NCBI GenBank assembly: GCA_037444665.1
Contig: JBBILZ010000029.1
Coordinates: 1 to 31,358, forward strand
Direction: 5' to 3'
Source of the DNA: a candidate division WOR-3 bacterium
Lineage (GTDB): Bacteria > Hydrothermota > Tepidihabitantia > SM23-42 > JAOAFX01
Length of the DNA: 31,358 nucleotides
Position 1 is the first letter of the stretch. Each line of letters starts with the position of its first letter. The notes under the pieces are model-generated. The model ran no database searches, was not told where the DNA came from, and saw nothing but the letters and a program-made list of their open reading frames with translations. Positions 1 to 30,074 of the stretch are shown piece after piece. Position numbers and translations under genes: made by a program.

Positions 1-18
1 TATCTTTAAAGCATTCAT
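1..18 (-). CDS. 5' end of a gene running off the left edge (MNALKI...), possibly a paralog of the C25 gene at 26121
   Basis: Minus strand reads GAGGAGGTCAAA-ATG AAT GCT TTA AAG ATA: strong SD, upstream promoter, and leader similar to that of the 26121 gene (MKTPKI...). Confidence 0.7.
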
Positions 19-60
19 TTTGACCTCCTCAATTTTGAGCCTTCGCCGTCTTTCAATAAT

Positions 61-88
61 ATTATAATCAAAACTCTATTTATGTCAA
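61..88 (-). promoter_or_regulatory. sigma70-type promoter TTGACA-N16-TATAAT for the gene at 1-18
   Basis: Perfect hexamers (tgtcaa 83-88, attata 61-66 on plus strand). Confidence 0.75.
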
Positions 89-4503: not shown

Positions 4504-4551
4504 AACATCACCTCACAATTTTTCGGTAATATCCCGAATTAAAAATCCTAA

Positions 4552-4594
4552 TTAGAATTTGTTTCGTATTTCGAATTTCGTATTTCGAATTTTT
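4552..4594 (-). repeat. Half copy of the heptamer-repeat element
   Basis: Minus strand aaattcg-aaatacg-aaattcg-aaatacg-aaacaaattctaa, matching left arms at 7021 and 15335. Confidence 0.75.
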
Positions 4595-6993: not shown

Positions 6994-7020
6994 GTTAAAA
7001 GCGCCTATGGATTACCAAAA

Positions 7021-7150
7021 AAATTCTAAATCCGAAATACGAAATCCGAAACAAATTTCAATAACCAAACCACAAAATTCTAAACAATTAGATTGTTTGA
7101 ATCATTTGAATTTGGGATTTAGTAATTGTTTAGAGTTTCGAATTTCGATA
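7021..7150 (+). repeat. Heptamer-repeat imperfect long hairpin element
   Basis: Left arm aaattct-aaatccg-aaatacg-aaatccg-aaacaaat; right arm gtttcg-aatttcg-atattcg-aattta; central aaacaat/attgttt stem. Confidence 0.8.
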
Positions 7151-7191
7151 TTCGAATTTACATTTATTTAACATGACATAAGATAATATCG

Positions 7192-15272: not shown

Positions 15273-15334
15273 AATGCACATATATTAAAAAATGTTAAAT
15301 TGTAAACTGAATTGTCTTGGGACGCTCACAAAAC

Positions 15335-15461
15335 AAATTCTAAATCCGAAATACGAAATCCGAAACAAATTCAAAATTCCAAATTCCAATTTTCTAAACA
15401 AATTTTTATTAATTGGGGTTTGGATATTGTTTAGAATTTAGTGCTTGGGATTTAGAATTTT
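15335..15461 (+). repeat. Heptamer-repeat hairpin element, second full copy
   Basis: First 37 nt identical to 7021-7057; right arm attgtttagaatttagtgcttgggatttagaattt ends a few nt before glgA ATG. Confidence 0.8.
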
Positions 15462-20349: not shown

Positions 20350-22173
20350 TTACCGCACAACCGTCATCGGTTTTGATGTTATGCCTTCCGGTGTCTCCAC
20401 ACGAATAAAATAGATTCCGTTGGGCAATTCCTGATTGCTCAGATTGAGCGTATAAGTACCTGCAGGCTTTGTCTCGTTTATTAAGTTATTAATCAATCTA
20501 CCAGTTGCATCATAGAGTGAAATATTTACATTGCCCTGTTGCTTCAGTGTATAAGACAATTTCGCAAGACCATTTGAAGGATTGGGGATGAGATTAACAG
20601 ATAAACCATTAATTATTCTTGCGCGGTCTTCTGCTATTCCTGTTCCACCTGCATCATACCAGATGCTGTAAATATAACTTGCATAATCAGTCCAGGCAAT
20701 TGCCGCATCACCAGTTGCCATATTTCTGGTAATAGCCGGTCCATATACATCACTAACATTACTTGTATTATCATTTATGGTGATAGATGTTGTCCAGTGC
20801 GTGGGGTCATCAATTGCTCCGAACTTATACTTTACCAATTCAGTGGATGTTGTATTCTGTCTGAGTGTCGCAAAGAACCCATGGCTTTGGTCATCAACAT
20901 AGATATTAGGTAAAAATTCTGTATAAGGTATTACCCAATTTGCAGTAGTCCAGTTTGCACCATCATCTGTAGAATAGGTGTTGAGAATGTCCATATCTGC
21001 CATGGTCATAGTATCCATCTGTGTATAGAGCACTACCCAGTTTGTATTGTTGTGCGCGCCAGCAATTACGCATTCCCTTTCATCTCTATGGTTATCATTC
21101 GGTGTTAAATCGATCCTTGTGCTCCAGGTAGAACCATAGTCATCAGAATACCAGCCCTTGACGGTTTCATCAAAAGTTTGTGGATAACCATAGGGATGTA
21201 GCCAGGAGATTAACCACATCCGGTCTGAACTTGAACCATACGCAATCTTTGTTCCGGAATAATAGATATTATCACCTGCAGTATTAGTAAGAGCAGTTGG
21301 CCCAAGTTCCCAGGTTCCAACATTAAGTTCGTTAGAGCGGGCAAACATCACCCAGGTGGTATCAGTACCCGTCTGATTTGCAGCGACCCAGGTAGCATAT
21401 AAGTATTCTTCACCGGGATATACCGAAACATCGGTCGTAAAGTCAAGGTCGTAATAAGTTACTGGATTAAAACCCCCAGTTGGTGAACCATAATAAATTG
21501 CAGTGCTCCCACTGGAACCAGGCAACGTTACTCTGAACCAGGTTCTCATATTAAGACTGAGATTCTCTAGCAGAATATATGAAACAATAATTGTATCCTG
21601 GACGATTTTAATCTTAGGATAAGAGATTTCGTAAGCAGTCCCAAAATCATAATTCCAGTAGACATTCCAAGATGCACCATTATCGGTTGAACGATGCATA
21701 AGAATATGCGCGCGACCGCTTGAATCCCACAATGCTATTGTATATAAATGGCCATTAGACAGTGAGGCAACTTTTACATCATATACCGTAGAATGGGGGT
21801 CAATACGCACATCAGTGCCCCATAAAGGCGTGGGTGGTGTCTCGGAACTTCTACGGTCTTCGCGCATCCGTGGATAGGCTTTGGTATTGGAGCCATTTGT
21901 TAAAGGATCAAACTTAATTTCTCTATGTTCCAGCCACCATTGATGAATATAACTGGATAGTTTGGCAGCAGTCTGCACATCACCATTTTTTCTGGCATTC
22001 TTCATTTTTTCAATGGTTTGTCCAAAATCAAATTCAGATGGCACTGAAATTGATTTGCCATTGGTATTCTGGTACGAGACTTCATCTATGATTCCGCAAC
22101 TGACATCTGCGGGTTCTGCATAGATGAAATTCTGAACCAGCAACCCGATTAAAAGTATTAATATTTTTTTCAT
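20350..22173 (-). CDS. Secreted Asp-box (BNR) repeat protein with T9SS-like C-terminal Ig domain
   Basis: Signal peptide MKKILILLIGLL; STDNGASW, SDDYGSTW, STDDGANW; GIAE linker then PNP...YDATGRL...GIYFIR. Confidence 0.8.
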   Translation of the reverse strand: MKKILILLIGLLVQNFIYAEPADVSCGIIDEVSYQNTNGKSISVPSEFDFGQTIEKMKNARKNGDVQTAAKLSSYIHQWWLEHREIKFDPLTNGSNTKAYPRMREDRRSSETPPTPLWGTDVRIDPHSTVYDVKVASLSNGHLYTIALWDSSGRAHILMHRSTDNGASWNVYWNYDFGTAYEISYPKIKIVQDTIIVSYILLENLSLNMRTWFRVTLPGSSGSTAIYYGSPTGGFNPVTYYDLDFTTDVSVYPGEEYLYATWVAANQTGTDTTWVMFARSNELNVGTWELGPTALTNTAGDNIYYSGTKIAYGSSSDRMWLISWLHPYGYPQTFDETVKGWYSDDYGSTWSTRIDLTPNDNHRDERECVIAGAHNNTNWVVLYTQMDTMTMADMDILNTYSTDDGANWTTANWVIPYTEFLPNIYVDDQSHGFFATLRQNTTSTELVKYKFGAIDDPTHWTTSITINDNTSNVSDVYGPAITRNMATGDAAIAWTDYASYIYSIWYDAGGTGIAEDRARIINGLSVNLIPNPSNGLAKLSYTLKQQGNVNISLYDATGRLINNLINETKPAGTYTLNLSNQELPNGIYFIRVETPEGITSKPMTVVR

Positions 22174-22390
22174 TTTTTCTCCTTTCTATTAAAACTTTAT
22201 AACACATTGTAATGTCCAATGCGCAAGGTCGTCACCAGAATTAATTATGTGGATTATTAATCCTGGACTTTTCAAGTATTTTTTTATTATCACCTCCTTG
22301 TTTCTGTTATTATAAATCGTATCAAGACTCTTAATGTTAAATACACCTTGATTACAATTTACGAACAAATCATAGTTCCTTGCACATAAC

Positions 22391-22418
22391 ATTATATTCA
22401 TTTTTTATTCAGTGTCAA
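22391..22418 (-). promoter_or_regulatory. Promoter TTGACA-N16-TATAAT about 220 nt upstream of the 20350-22173 gene
   Basis: tgtcaa 22413-22418 and attata 22391-22396 on plus strand. Confidence 0.65.
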
Positions 22419-22464
22419 GAGGCAAAAGCAAGGGGCGGGGCGACGTAGTAGCACCGCCTGTTCA

Positions 22465-23970
22465 TTAACGAATAATTGTCATCGGCTTTGATGTTATGCC
22501 TTCATGTGTCTCCATACGGATGAAATAGATTCCATTGGGTAATTTCTGATTACTCAGATTGAGCGTATGAATACCAGCCGGTTTTGTTTCGTTTATCAAG
22601 TTATTAATCAATCTGCCAGTTGCATCATAGAGCGAAATATTTACATTGCCCTGTTGTTTTAGTGTATAAGACAATTTCGCAAGACCATTTGAAGGGCTGG
22701 GTGAAATATTAAGGAGTTCACCACTGATTCTCTTTGAATTGGATTCTTCAATTCCGGTCCAGTCACTGCGGTCAAAATATGCTGCACCATAGATTGGAGA
22801 ATAACTCACATAGATACAACCATAGACATTGTTTCCTAAATATTCAATGTCGGGTTGCACATTATTGGGCGGTTGATAATCACCAAATTGCACTGGAGTT
22901 GACCAGTAACCATAATAGTTGCGCCAGGTATATCTGAATCGCCGGTTTGAGTAACTATTGTATGCGTATACTATGCCCTGACCACCATCATATCTTGTAG
23001 CAACATCAGGGCAACAGGCAATCACGGTCGTGTCTTCAGCACCAGGGATGCCCCATCCCCAACTTGAGCCACCATTATAAGAAGCCAGGTATTTGCAATA
23101 GTATGCGACTGCAGAGCCACTCTGTTCATAAACAGCAATAATCGTGTCGTGGTATGCACCTACTGAGGTAAAGCGAGAATTCGGACCGACAAAACTTCTC
23201 CGAATGCGAGTCAAAGTACCATAATAGTCAACGCCATCAATCTCAATACTATCCGCATTGGAGATGTATGTTGCCCAAGCATAATAGTCTGAATAACCTT
23301 CATTTGTGCAGGCATCAAGGCCCCTTTTTGCATTGGAGACCCCGGTTGCAATTTCAGACCAGTTAATTCCTGCTGTATCACTATAAAAATATCTGAGTGA
23401 GCCATTTGTGGTTATGACAAAGAGATTCATCCAGTAATTTTCAAAATCCTGGTCACTAACCAATGCAATCTCCTTTATTGAATCTCCTGGGTTTGTTGTA
23501 AATATTTCAATATACTGGGCACCGTTATTGAAATTTTCTTGCACTCCATCAGATGTCCTGAATCGCTTGAGGTTGATTATTTGTCTACCAGAACCGAAGG
23601 TAAATGCGACATAGAAGTGGTTTCTAAGTGCTGAGACACTGACTCTTAGGTCTTGAATGTAACCACCACCAAAGATTGGGTTAGCTATCCAGGAAGTGCC
23701 CCCATTGCTTGAAAAATATCCATAGCCTTCAGTAATAGAACCAGTGTGATAGACAAGTGCTGTAAAGAGATTTCCGCTTTGCCGATGGATATCATAAGAG
23801 ACGTAGAAAATAGAATCTTTATTTCCGATGCGCACATCATTTCCCCATCTATAGTCTGTTAGTGTGGGTGTTTCATCATAGTATTCTGGTGGTGTTGTTA
23901 TCTGTTCTGCAGGAGCGAAAACAAGGATTCCTGACAGAAACATACTCAATATTATGCCCATTATCTTCAT
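22465..23970 (-). CDS. Secreted Asp-box protein with T9SS-like C-terminal Ig domain
   Basis: Signal peptide; WGNDVRI (WGTDVRI in neighbour); SSNGGTSW, SYNGGSSW; GIEE linker; CTD 69/76 aa identical to neighbour. Confidence 0.8.
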   Translation of the reverse strand: MKIMGIILSMFLSGILVFAPAEQITTPPEYYDETPTLTDYRWGNDVRIGNKDSIFYVSYDIHRQSGNLFTALVYHTGSITEGYGYFSSNGGTSWIANPIFGGGYIQDLRVSVSALRNHFYVAFTFGSGRQIINLKRFRTSDGVQENFNNGAQYIEIFTTNPGDSIKEIALVSDQDFENYWMNLFVITTNGSLRYFYSDTAGINWSEIATGVSNAKRGLDACTNEGYSDYYAWATYISNADSIEIDGVDYYGTLTRIRRSFVGPNSRFTSVGAYHDTIIAVYEQSGSAVAYYCKYLASYNGGSSWGWGIPGAEDTTVIACCPDVATRYDGGQGIVYAYNSYSNRRFRYTWRNYYGYWSTPVQFGDYQPPNNVQPDIEYLGNNVYGCIYVSYSPIYGAAYFDRSDWTGIEESNSKRISGELLNISPSPSNGLAKLSYTLKQQGNVNISLYDATGRLINNLINETKPAGIHTLNLSNQKLPNGIYFIRMETHEGITSKPMTIIR

Positions 23971-26043: not shown

Positions 26044-26076
26044 TTGACAATTTTTAAATCAGAAGTATAATATAAT
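26044..26076 (+). promoter_or_regulatory. Promoter TTGACA-N16-TATAAT (second overlapping TATAAT at 26071-26076) for the C25 gene
   Basis: Perfect hexamers. Confidence 0.75.
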
Positions 26077-26081
26077 GTTAT

Positions 26082-26098
26082 TGGAGACGGCGAAGGCA
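26082..26098 (+). repeat. Left arm of 17-bp perfect inverted repeat enclosing the C25 gene
   Basis: tggagacggcgaaggca; exact reverse complement at 28588-28604. Confidence 0.9.
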
Positions 26099-26120
26099 CA
26101 TTAAAATTGAGGAGGTTAAG

Positions 26121-28578
26121 ATGAAAACTCCAAAGATAGCCTTCTTAATCGGTGCATCGGTCATACTCCTGTGGGGGGGGGTATACGATTGACTACTCTC
26201 CCAATGAATTCTCTTTTTATAAAGACCAGGGCTATGACCGTATAAAGGCACCAAAGTTTAGCCTTCATGGCGAACCCGGCACACCTGAGTTGCCGGCAGT
26301 CTATCTCAATTACATCATTCCACCAAATGCAAGGGCAGAGTCGGTTATTGTATCTCAGTTCCAGTATATCCAGATTCCTGGTGAATACCTGATTTATCCT
26401 GCCCAACCACCAAGGGTTATCGGTGAGTCTGTTCCCTGGGTTCCGCCTGATACTATTATCTATAACTCTGACAATCTCTTTCCTGGTGAGTTTATAAAGG
26501 TTGTTGGTGAAGGTGTTATGGATGGTGCAAGGATTGTCACAGTGGAAGTGAAACCACTCCAGTATCGTCCAAAGACAAAGAGATTATACCTTGTCCGCCC
26601 CATTGATTTTGAGTTTGTCTTCAGTCCACAACCTGTTCCTGAATTGAGGCCAAGGGTAAGGGGAATAAATGAGCAGGCGGTTTATGATGTGGCATTGAGA
26701 AATGTCGTTGTAAATGACAATGAGATTTCGGTTTATTATCAGAAACCAGCGATAGTTGAAGAAAGTCAGATAGGTGGTGCTGCACCATATCCGATAGGAC
26801 CTGCTATTATCATTGCCCCGCTGGAATTCCATTCCGCATTCCAGCCTTATGCTGACTGGATGACTGACCAGGGAATAAAAACATATCTCATCACACCCCA
26901 GACAATCTACCAGTTTTTCCCGGGTGTGGACAATGCTGAAAAAGTTCGCAACTACATAAAATACTGCTATGAGAATGCAGGCGGCACTTATTTCATTCTT
27001 GGTGGTGATGATTGCTCAAGCCAGCATATAAATCTTGTGCCTGTGAGATGGTGTGTGGAATATGTAGACGATGAAGACACAATTATACCGGCCGATCTCT
27101 ACTTCTCAGATCTGACAGGTAATTGGGATGCTGATGGAGATGGACGGTGGGGTGAATGGGAGGATGAGCCAGACCGATGGCCCGAAGTCTTTGTTGGAAG
27201 AATCACTGCCTATACTACACAGGAAGTTACCAACTGGGTAACAAAGGCTCTACATTACGAAAAAACACCGGGAGTAATTTTTGATACTGCACTCTGGATA
27301 TACTCAAGCCCTGTTGGCACCGGCAATGCCCCATCTGTTTTCCCTGGTCATATTTCTCATATTTTTGCACAGGATTACTGGGCTGATGCAGCATTATATC
27401 TATTGAGTAATGGCTATGGAATTATGAATCTGAATTGCCATGGGAATGCGGGTGATTACCGAATAAGGCATAATCCTAATGCAGACCATCATAGTTGGTG
27501 GCCTAATCCACCAGACCCGTATAAAGCCGGGCTTAACTGGTTAACAAATCTCAACAGATACTTTGTTGGATATGCGATATCCTGCTATGTTGGCGCATAC
27601 GATACACTCGCACATCCAATTTATTATGAAAACGGCACAGATACCTGTATTGCGGATGCCTATGTTGATGCCTATCTTTATAATCAGCAAGGAAATTTGG
27701 GTCCTTTTGGTGCTGTTGCATTTCTTGCGAATACACGTAATGGCTTATGGCAGGGAGGTGGACCTTCATATGACTTGCAGTTTGCTTTTTGGAAAATTAT
27801 TTTTAATCCTTGGTGGGTCGGTGCACCGCCAGAGCCATCCTTGACCAGAATCGGTGTTGCGGAATCTTTTTCCAAGTGTGATGAAATTATTCACTGGTTT
27901 ATTTATGATCATAGATATGTTTGTTACGGTCACACTCTCTTTGGTTCTCCCGTTACCGAGGTCTGGACAAAGACCCCGGGTAATATGAGTGTATCCCATC
28001 CAAGACAGATTTATGCAGGTCAGCAGGTGCAGTTTACTGTTACAGTGAGAGACGCATTAGACGGAAGAAGACTCCAGTATGCCAAGGTCTGTTTGAATAA
28101 ACCAAATGACATATATCAGGTTGGCTCAACAAATTCCAATGGTCAGGTGACATTCACTATCACACCCCAATCATCGGGCACAATGAAAATTACCGTCACA
28201 CGACTCCATAATGCAGATAATCTTACTTATAATCAGTATCGGCCATCACAAACAACCTGTTTGGTGCTGGAGCCATTAGGTGGTGGACAATCTTCTGATT
28301 CCGATGAACTACTTCCAACCTCACTCTGTATTACTCATCTCCCAGCACTTGCTGAAGAAAAATTGGCAATATCCTATGGTATTCCTGAACCGGGCGATGT
28401 CTTAATTACAGTTTATGATATTACTGGCTCAGTTGTGAAATCAATAACCCATACATACCGTCATCCAGGATACTATCAGAAAACAATAAGTGCTGAAGGA
28501 CTATCCAGTGGTATCTACTTTCTTGTCGTCAGACAAAATAATGAGAAGGTCTCCAAAAAATTCCTTCTCATAAAGTAA
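26121..28578 (+). pseudogene. Gingipain-like C25 cysteine peptidase (signal peptide, propeptide, catalytic domain, Ig domain, T9SS-like CTD), frameshifted at a G9 tract after the signal peptide
   Basis: SD GAGGAGG + ATG 26121 gives MKTPKIAFLIGASVILLWGGVYD*; body is in the +1 frame: GEPGTPELP propeptide, YFILGGD, DLYFSDL, VFVGRI, catalytic NCHG and SCY, LFGSP. Confidence 0.8.
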
Positions 28579-28587
28579 AATAAAAGA

Positions 28588-28604
28588 TGCCTTCGCCGTC
28601 TCCA
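28588..28604 (+). repeat. Right arm of the 17-bp inverted repeat
   Basis: tgccttcgccgtctcca, 9 nt after the C25 stop. Confidence 0.9.
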
Positions 28605-28631
28605 TTTATCTAAATAATTAAAGGGGGTGTT

Positions 28632-30074
28632 ATGAAAGTATTTGGATTGTTAATATTTTCTGCCCTTTACTTTGGCCAAATCAACTGGGAGATAGAGGTT
28701 GTGGATACGGTCATTAACTCTCCTACTGGATATGAATTTCAAAATTCCCTTATCGTGGATACTGTTGGGTTGCCGCACATTGTTTACAACAAAAGGGGAT
28801 ACAGTGAATTGATTTATACAACAAAAATGAATAACAATTGGTCCAGAGAGACCATTGATTCAGGATTATTCTATGCCTGTCCATCAATTGCCTCTGATAA
28901 AAATGGCAGGTTACACTGCAGTTATTATCAGGTTGTGGGGCAATCCGCCTATTTAACCTATGTCTATCGCGATTCAACGAGATGGGTTAAATTTACGGTT
29001 GATTCAATTTTTGGTATCTTAACAAATTGGTGGTTTTCCTCGTATTTTCGCACCGAGATTGAGATTGATACCTGTGGTTATCCGGGGATTGCCTATGTTT
29101 CCTGGAATCCCTTAGATTCGTTATTTTACATAAAGTATATCCATTACAACGGTCTTGATTGGGATTCATCGGTTGTTGAGTATGATACAGTTTGGGCAGG
29201 ACATCTTGTTCCTTCAGATTGGTCAGTAAATTTAGAAATCAATTCCCATAATAGACCACTCATTGCCTTTCATCAAATTTATAGTGGTCCGGGTAATGAT
29301 ACCATTAAGTTAGGCATCTGGAGTGATAGTCTGCAGGCTTGGGTTGTGGAGCCAGTGCTATGTAATCCCTATGGTGGGGCATCTATCTCTCTGGTTTTAA
29401 ACAATCAGGATTACCCTTATATAGCGCATGGTGTGGATGTAGGGCTTTATTGCACCTGGTGGGATGGAGCAGCCTGGCAGAGTGAATATACGGGGATTGA
29501 TATAGGATGGTTGGAAATAAGATTGTCTTTGGCACTTGATAGTATGAGCAGACCTCACATATTTTATCACCCATATGGCCCGGTAAAGTATTGTTATAAA
29601 GATACAATATGGAATGATTGCGGCAGAGTAGATTCTACCCTGGACAATTTGGGAGATATTAATTTATTACTAAATAGTGCTGGGCAACCGCTGGTACTAT
29701 TTAGGTTTGGCGATTGGGATAGTGTGACTCAATCTAATTATAATGGTATCAAATATGCCAAAGGCACTTTTGTGGGGATTGAAGAGAATGATTCTAAATA
29801 CTTACTGCATGATACTGGATTAAAGATAGAGATTTATCCAAGTGTTGCGGATGTTGTTTTGAATATCGGATATGCGACTTCGGTTTCGGGGGATATTGAG
29901 ATAGCCATCTATGATGCTTCTGGCAGAATGATTAAGGCAATAAAGCAGGACAGATGTCTGCCTGGAAAATATCAGAAGGTGGTTGATACTACTGATTTGC
30001 CTACAGGTGTCTATTTTGTGGTTCTTAACCAAGACGATGAGAAGGTCAGTAAAAAATTCTTGCTCATTAAGTAG
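28632..30074 (+). CDS. Secreted beta-propeller-like repeat protein with T9SS-like C-terminal domain
   Basis: Signal peptide; repeated S(L/I)xxDxxGxPHIxY...W blades; VGIEE linker; YDASGRM, GVYFV; SD GGGGGTG. Confidence 0.8.
   Translation: MKVFGLLIFSALYFGQINWEIEVVDTVINSPTGYEFQNSLIVDTVGLPHIVYNKRGYSELIYTTKMNNNWSRETIDSGLFYACPSIASDKNGRLHCSYYQVVGQSAYLTYVYRDSTRWVKFTVDSIFGILTNWWFSSYFRTEIEIDTCGYPGIAYVSWNPLDSLFYIKYIHYNGLDWDSSVVEYDTVWAGHLVPSDWSVNLEINSHNRPLIAFHQIYSGPGNDTIKLGIWSDSLQAWVVEPVLCNPYGGASISLVLNNQDYPYIAHGVDVGLYCTWWDGAAWQSEYTGIDIGWLEIRLSLALDSMSRPHIFYHPYGPVKYCYKDTIWNDCGRVDSTLDNLGDINLLLNSAGQPLVLFRFGDWDSVTQSNYNGIKYAKGTFVGIEENDSKYLLHDTGLKIEIYPSVADVVLNIGYATSVSGDIEIAIYDASGRMIKAIKQDRCLPGKYQKVVDTTDLPTGVYFVVLNQDDEKVSKKFLLIK

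Follow-up and report, generated by a model that had tools for sequence, protein, structure and literature searches.

The DNA analysed, called the window below, is a contig of 31,358 nucleotides (JBBILZ010000029.1) from a candidate division WOR-3 bacterium. Its plus strand carries an operon that begins with a gene for a C25 (gingipain-family) peptidase. The body of this gene (26182-28578) is an open frame with propeptide, catalytic, Ig-like and T9SS C-terminal sorting domains, and the Pfam families Propeptide_C25, Peptidase_C25 and Por_Secre_tail were all matched. The His-Gly and Cys columns, presumably the catalytic ones as in gingipain R, are invariant across 43 homologs, and a PDB sequence search gave just a weak gingipain pro-domain match. 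The genome also encodes an SprA-like protein. The second gene of the operon (28632-30074, plus strand) encodes a T9SS cargo protein of 480 amino acids (Pfam), possibly a BNR-type propeller; its Atlas matches all lay below 0.9 and are leads only. Among the contigs of sequencing run X1 at 28467-29916, a second contig has the same C25 end and about 1.1 kb of different gene 2 sequence, and is probably a paralogous operon missing from the assembly. Two more T9SS-cargo genes, 82% identical at their 3' ends, lie on the minus strand at 20350-23970, divergent from the C25 operon. Low-complexity A/T-rich repeats occupy intergenic regions in both orientations (4545-4594, 7014-7159 and 15328-15461); some members of this family form hairpins, and similar copies occur elsewhere in the genome.

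The original prediction was that a perfect 17-bp inverted repeat brackets the C25 gene. The repeat is exact. The purine-rich 5' arm occupies 26082-26098 and its complement, the pyrimidine-rich 3' arm, 28588-28604, both read on the plus strand. The 3' arm follows the C25 stop codon (ending at 28578) after the claimed gap of 9 nt and lies 27 nt before the next start codon. The 5' arm was likewise found where it had been placed, between the -10 box and the Shine-Dalgarno (SD) sequence, at the predicted 5' end of the transcript. A sigma-70-type promoter at 26044-26071 (-35 box, 16 nt, -10 box; plus strand) agrees with the consensus at 12 of 12 positions, the SD sequence of the C25 gene is at 26109-26115 (plus strand), and standard promoter spacing would put the +1 at about 26078-26079. 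A terminator-like site was looked for at the 3' arm and none was found. Since there is one promoter and no such site, we infer that C25 and gene 2 are on one transcript. No arm follows gene 2, and none of the C25-operon type was found at the minus-strand cargo pair.

The complementarity of the two flanks was scored for 1,800 ORF flank pairs of the genome. The C25 locus scored 45; six entries reached at least this value, two of them being the C25 gene itself under two different starts, and none of about 6,000 random flank pairings reached 40. The 13-nt core of the arm occurs three times in the 2.54-Mb genome, always on this contig and at a gene border. The third copy (39-51) lies between promoter and SD in the leader of a paralog that is cut by the contig start (promoter, core, SD and gene start within 1-88, minus strand); in run X1, a contig piece of this paralog joins C25-gene sequence at 26103-26161. 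The idea of a scattered repeat was therefore rejected. The exact core itself was found in 5 of 60 relatives: one genome (G006) has three copies at operon borders, and the four others have single, apparently chance, copies.

All 17 arm pairs are present in the minimum-energy fold computed for the whole 2.6-kb region (26079-28680), and this helix-bearing fold is 17.7 kcal/mol better than the best fold without the helix. A local 6-bp alternative within the leader had also been proposed. It exists, but the predicted fold pairs that stretch with the SD region instead, and the alternative is not conserved in relatives. A 13-bp hairpin is predicted at 26106-26148 between the SD region and early coding sequence of C25; it is far weaker in relatives. 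No Rfam family matched in the window at the gathering score.

That the repeat encloses a whole C25 gene, as first assumed, did not hold. The SD-linked ATG at 26121 opens a signal-peptide-like N-terminus (26121-26192), and its frame hits a TGA after 23 codons because of a run of nine G at 26173-26181, which supplies Trp-Gly-Gly codons. This allele is therefore OFF, and the run is likely to be a slipped-strand ON/OFF switch. No longer G/C run occurs in the genome, and GGG makes up 9.6% of the genome's glycine codons. Run X1 possibly derives from the source sample, and its contigs confirm the nine G; those of X3 and X4 have no indel in this stretch, and that of X2 has three G fewer. No bubble at the G run was seen in the contigs of the four DNA runs, but contigs lose rare variants, so that this does not argue against mixed lengths.

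The relatives were then considered. A search for C25 genes gave 194 hits, corresponding to 167 distinct genes. The 40 of them with an identity of 45% or more and at least 100 nt of DNA upstream form the subfamily discussed here; 29 of these have both flanks. For comparison, 90 distant C25 genes (24-37% identity, a single intact hit with flanks) were used. The named homologs come from WOR-3 or Ca. Stahlbacteria genomes. A G run of at least 7 is found in 32 of the 40 subfamily genes and in 1 of the 90 distant ones, and the run is 5 to 12 nt long in 37 of the 40. The true N-terminus is in frame in 19 subfamily genes and out of frame in 21. In all 12 pairs tested, dN/dS was 0.09-0.19, and eight of these were OFF/OFF pairs, so the OFF state must be reversible or leaky. 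A homopolymer in the 5' coding region thus sets the frame, its length differs among relatives, and the OFF alleles are otherwise intact and under purifying selection. This combination indicates phase variation, and the C25 gene is most probably switched reversibly through its G run; programmed slippage during expression is a possible alternative to switching at the DNA level. The annotated starts of these C25 genes conceal the switch.

Is the inverted repeat conserved along with the G run? With an ungapped complementarity score, 20 of the 29 subfamily genes with both flanks reached at least 30 between leader and downstream region, as compared to 2 of the 90 distant genes and 0.9% of cross pairs; a preceding sliding duplex scan at a lax threshold had been uninformative. 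The nine genes below the threshold comprise two deletion fusions to the last gene (L053, L217), the locus L222, four loci whose arms have decayed yet can be recognised, although their G run is present and gene 2 undamaged (L204, L207, L213, L216), and two near-identical loci with a score of 28 (L206, L220). For a census of the pairs, 32 junctions were chosen by eye as arm-bearing; without L055, which has a truncated and fused C25 gene, and one duplicate, 30 distinct arm pairs remained. In fixed columns these have 357 Watson-Crick, 53 G·U, 12 A·C and 13 other cells. In the main group, two or more Watson-Crick types occur in 11 of the 15 core columns, in some of them owing to register shifts common to both arms, and a supported five-gene clade has a different arm sequence on both sides together with a different second gene. 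Hence the compensatory changes that an RNA pairing would leave were found, and it is the pairing and not the sequence that is conserved. The excess of G·U over A·C shrinks to 12 against 5 when counted as distinct column-by-type events; the loci are kin, the register was picked with a G·U-tolerant score, and a C-to-T bias of the sense strand would likewise favour G·T. Short palindromic repeats are inserted beside an unbroken 3' arm in the spacers of L044, L045, L212, L218, L040 and L043.

The position of the 5' arm points in the same direction. A regular expression found the promoter pattern in 22 of 28 related leaders and not in the other 6. In 21 of the 22 the core starts 11-23 nt past the -10 box, so that the helix would begin no earlier than about the predicted +1. 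In the remaining leader, that of L207, the core is at +5 and the duplex is one of the weakest. The 5' arm lies 13-31 nt upstream of the ATG, or 55-68 nt in a long-leader clade. By comparative sequence analysis, the conserved element is confined to one C25 subfamily of WOR-3-type bacteria, and its arms likely form an RNA helix of 15-20 bp between the predicted 5' end and the spacer before the next gene. We hold with considerable confidence that this RNA helix is under selection.

These data bear on explanations at the level of DNA. The original prediction had offered, as one of its two models, that the arms are recombination sites which invert the gene relative to a fixed promoter. A perfect inverted repeat with the promoter outside would suit such sites, and tyrosine recombinases are encoded elsewhere in the genome. 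However, the arms are not near-invariant: they differ between loci and within them, and their mismatches are strand-biased, with G·T favoured on the sense strand. All inspected loci with two arms have the same orientation, one arm in the promoter-side leader and the other in the spacer before the next gene. No recombinase was among the 23 window proteins scanned, and the gene already has a slippage switch. A strand-changing joint was not seen in the contigs of the four DNA runs, but rare variants are lost in contigs, so that this carries no weight against inversion. Inversion of the gene is very improbable. Integron cassettes, whose attC sites carry the core motifs RYYYAAC and GTTRRRY, were also considered and rejected: either core lies near 2 of the 32 junctions, both times in an inserted spacer hairpin, and no integron integrase matched above the TIGR02249 cut-off in the genome, which is 99.5% complete by markers.

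The arms could also serve DNA without recombining, as sites of a looping regulator, or be a relic such as the ends of an IVS-like or transposon-like cassette. Other ORFs of the genome are bracketed by inverted repeats, and these operons gain and lose genes. A protein-binding site, however, would keep its sequence and not exchange it on both sides, and a relic would not remain paired across proteins that are 48-78% identical and saturated at synonymous sites, as the arms do. Deletion junctions in the C39 remnant described below, L053 and L217 lie in coding sequence and not at the arms. We consider a DNA role or a relic improbable, if less so than inversion.

Several other arrangements in the genome were noted. 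A degenerate copy of the core belongs to the locus G000 C39:21237-21353, where a leader with SD and ATG of this operon type runs out of frame into the final 27 codons of a T9SS sorting domain and a 3' arm is missing. In the same-genus genome G008, the same upstream sequence is followed by an intact C25 operon (L020). At C39 the whole operon has therefore been lost, and the junction of this deletion remnant lies away from the arms. Just upstream of the C39 promoter, at 21145-21207, lies a G/C-rich stem-loop with GGGGGCTGAG-type complementary arms, a possible small RNA or terminator that is kept in L020 and L053. Long unrelated inverted repeats bracket ORFs at C68:2087-2527, C5:17151-17540, C25:29427-30011, C34:1111-1584, C18:40214-41362 and C89:4752-5720 of G000 (C25 being a contig name here). 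On the minus strand of C20 (3808-4920), a gene is bracketed by a 15-nt imperfect inverted repeat that is partly arm-like; an AUG heads the 3' side of this repeat and an attC-like core follows.

What the helix does depends on the 3' arm and on the genes behind it. In its other model, the original prediction had proposed that the two ends of a monocistronic C25 message pair with each other. Covariation, the surplus of G·U and a 5' arm located where the transcript is predicted to start all support the pairing. A monocistronic 3' end is not supported: besides the missing terminator-like site, a T9SS-cargo gene comes next, and the arm recurs before third genes. Such second arms, located after gene 2 and before the third gene, were found in L043, L044, L225 and two operons of G006, and their pairing with their own leader is at least as good as that of the first arms. 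In L203 the arm is absent at the 14-nt junction of genes 2 and 3 and present before the fourth gene. After the last gene of an operon no arm was found in the loci inspected. The repeated arms may partly stem from the duplication of spacer-plus-gene units via shared sorting-domain sequence.

The 3' arm is headed by an AUG that opens a mini-ORF of 8 codons (28587-28613, plus strand), 8 nt past the C25 stop, for which we infer translation. An AUG 4-14 nt past the stop is present at 25 of the 32 junctions, compared to 142 of 1,474 in the genome, and 31 of the 32 have an ATG, GTG or TTG no more than 10 nt from the helix base. The A of the mini-ORF AUG faces a pairing base in just 5 of 20 cases. At seven junctions the end of the mini-ORF overlaps the next start, and most of the others end in or just before the next SD. 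A function of the encoded peptide was rejected, as neither frame nor length is conserved (6-35 codons, two in frame with gene 2). When the 3' arm was blocked in the computation, the next initiation region was predicted to open at a lower cost, by a median of 3.6 kcal/mol at 30 junctions. A role of the arm as a sequence-specific anti-SD was discarded as well; it blocks more than shuffled arms of the same composition in just 11 of the 30. The partner of the 3' arm is the leader arm upstream of the SD and not the SD itself.

We propose that the helix senses the phase-variable translation of C25 and keeps the downstream cargo genes expressed when C25 is not translated, an interpretation that we find plausible without being confident of it. 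In an ON allele, ribosomes that have finished C25 would start again at the AUG of the mini-ORF, open the helix and move on to the gene behind it, as is usual in translational coupling. In an OFF allele no ribosome would reach the C25 stop and the helix could form. It would then bury the 5' end of the transcript, which would protect the downstream message, and bind the C/U-rich arm that otherwise folds onto the next initiation region, and gene 2 would initiate from its own SD. For the parts of this proposal, we incline slightly towards a tie between the helix and the switch, and somewhat more clearly towards a rescue of the downstream genes rather than their shut-down. In four loci (L041, L218, L219, L225) an undamaged gene 2 stands next to a C25 gene with additional lesions, which is a weak hint for rescue. 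More tentatively, the element may be described as an anti-polarity device, in which a kilobase RNA clamp and a ribosome-relay mini-ORF would read the state of the switched first gene and allow the genes behind it to be expressed whether it is ON or OFF, one leader being able to dock to alternative spacers. The helix together with the frameshift switch would offer a testable answer to operon polarity when the first gene is off.

The main difficulty for rescue is Rho, which is encoded in the genome and could end transcription within the 2.4 kb that stay untranslated, so that the 3' arm would not be made. The C25 sense strand has nearly as many C as G (509 and 523), which decides nothing about Rho. 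RNase III, RNase E/G and RNase Y are encoded as well; the query used for RNase J found no match. Cleavage of the helix by RNase III, which could give the opposite outcome, is the main rival to the rescue reading. The helix would be a processing stem that forms when ribosomes miss the C25 stop, and the cut would separate or destroy the cistrons. The whole operon would then follow the switch, or its proteins would be made in unequal amounts. A duplex of 15-20 bp that tolerates G·U would be a fitting substrate for the RNase III of this genome, and the stems of rRNA processing have the same geometry. The 5'/3' pairing of icaR, in the part of that report used here, also gives an RNase III substrate (PMC3868564). 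On the other hand, simple polarity or coupling would already silence downstream genes, gene 2 is intact where C25 has further lesions, and several of the helices are short or interrupted. We regard a processing stem as rather unlikely.

A second rival takes the helix as a constitutive cap or closed loop that is independent of phase and resembles the pairing model of the original prediction. It would hide the 5' end from decay, or bring the C25 stop beside its own SD for the recycling of ribosomes. The helix begins at about +1, the SD and ATG as well as the stop stand at its inner base, and the genome has RNase E/G and RNase Y, with no RNase J found by the query used. In Bacillus subtilis a 14-bp 5'/3' pairing of the hbs message acts against cleavage, according to the part of the report drawn on (PMC5737220). 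The conserved AUG at the helix base, however, would route ribosomes through the helix, and arms before third genes but none after last genes do not fit a role for C25 only. Such a cap is doubtful, slightly more so than the RNase III stem.

Returning to the proposed link between helix and switch, we looked at its history. Outgroup operons with 36-37% identity and the same gene order (L224, L125, L126) have neither a G run nor arms. Their gene 2 starts 26, 9 and 9 nt past the C25 stop, the place of the mini-ORF AUG in the subfamily, and this AUG may be an inherited relic. Within the relatives, L222 lacks the G run, its arms have decayed, and its gene 2 is preceded by a promoter-like sequence; L063 and L083 have no 5' arm; and L200 has an interrupted G run and has kept its 5' arm. 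The tract and the arms arose on one branch, so that their co-occurrence is a single evolutionary event plus anecdotes.

In the full-text literature, with subscription journals and supplements outside the search, no description of this element was found. The portion of a TRIC-seq preprint that was available (10.1101/2025.09.11.675593) contains nothing comparable, and by term search the main text of a WOR-3 survey (PMC12542636) makes no mention of peptidase, C25, gingipain or secretion. The closest parallel is hbs of B. subtilis. Its report, as far as covered here, describes a long-range interaction of 14 bp between the 5'- and 3'-UTR that was confirmed by compensatory mutation and restrains endonucleases from cutting close to the 5' end. 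The hbs message is monocistronic, 540-570 nt long, and ends at a terminator (PMC5737220). As in that part of the hbs report, dedicated complementary arms flank the coding sequence on what we take to be one transcript, and the SD is uninvolved. Unlike in hbs as described there, the span is 2.5 kb, or about 4 kb for the second arms, the 3' arm is intercistronic, repeated and bears the start of a mini-ORF, and the arms enclose a gene that is switched by frameshift. In icaR of Staphylococcus aureus, again from the part of the report used, a 3' motif pairs with the SD and represses icaR (PMC3868564). Both that case, so far as its report was covered, and the present one have 5'/3' pairing within one bacterial mRNA; the 3' arm here, however, pairs with a separate co-varying leader arm instead of the SD.

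The mRNAs of type I toxins such as hok and aapA fold their extreme 5' end back onto a distal 3' element. The same ends would pair here, but those messages are a few hundred nt long, encode a small toxin and have an antisense RNA, none of which applies to the C25 operon. Pre-rRNA processing stems and ORF-containing intervening sequences have RNase III-sized arms that bracket kilobases; here, in contrast, a protein-coding operon has one leader and several alternative partners. Contingency loci with simple sequence repeats (SSR) have a length-variable homopolymer early in a surface-protein gene, with in-frame and out-of-frame alleles. In the part of the source consulted, SSR phase variation is mostly described for host-adapted pathogens (PMC11475388). 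The bacteria considered here are from sediment and the subsurface, so that poly-G phase variation would extend to uncultured sediment bacteria, and a long-range RNA element is added to the switch. The documented cases of 5'/3' pairing in bacterial mRNAs that we found concern short messages, whereas the helix proposed here spans 2.5-4 kb, and its arms covary clearly in two or more families belonging to one order.
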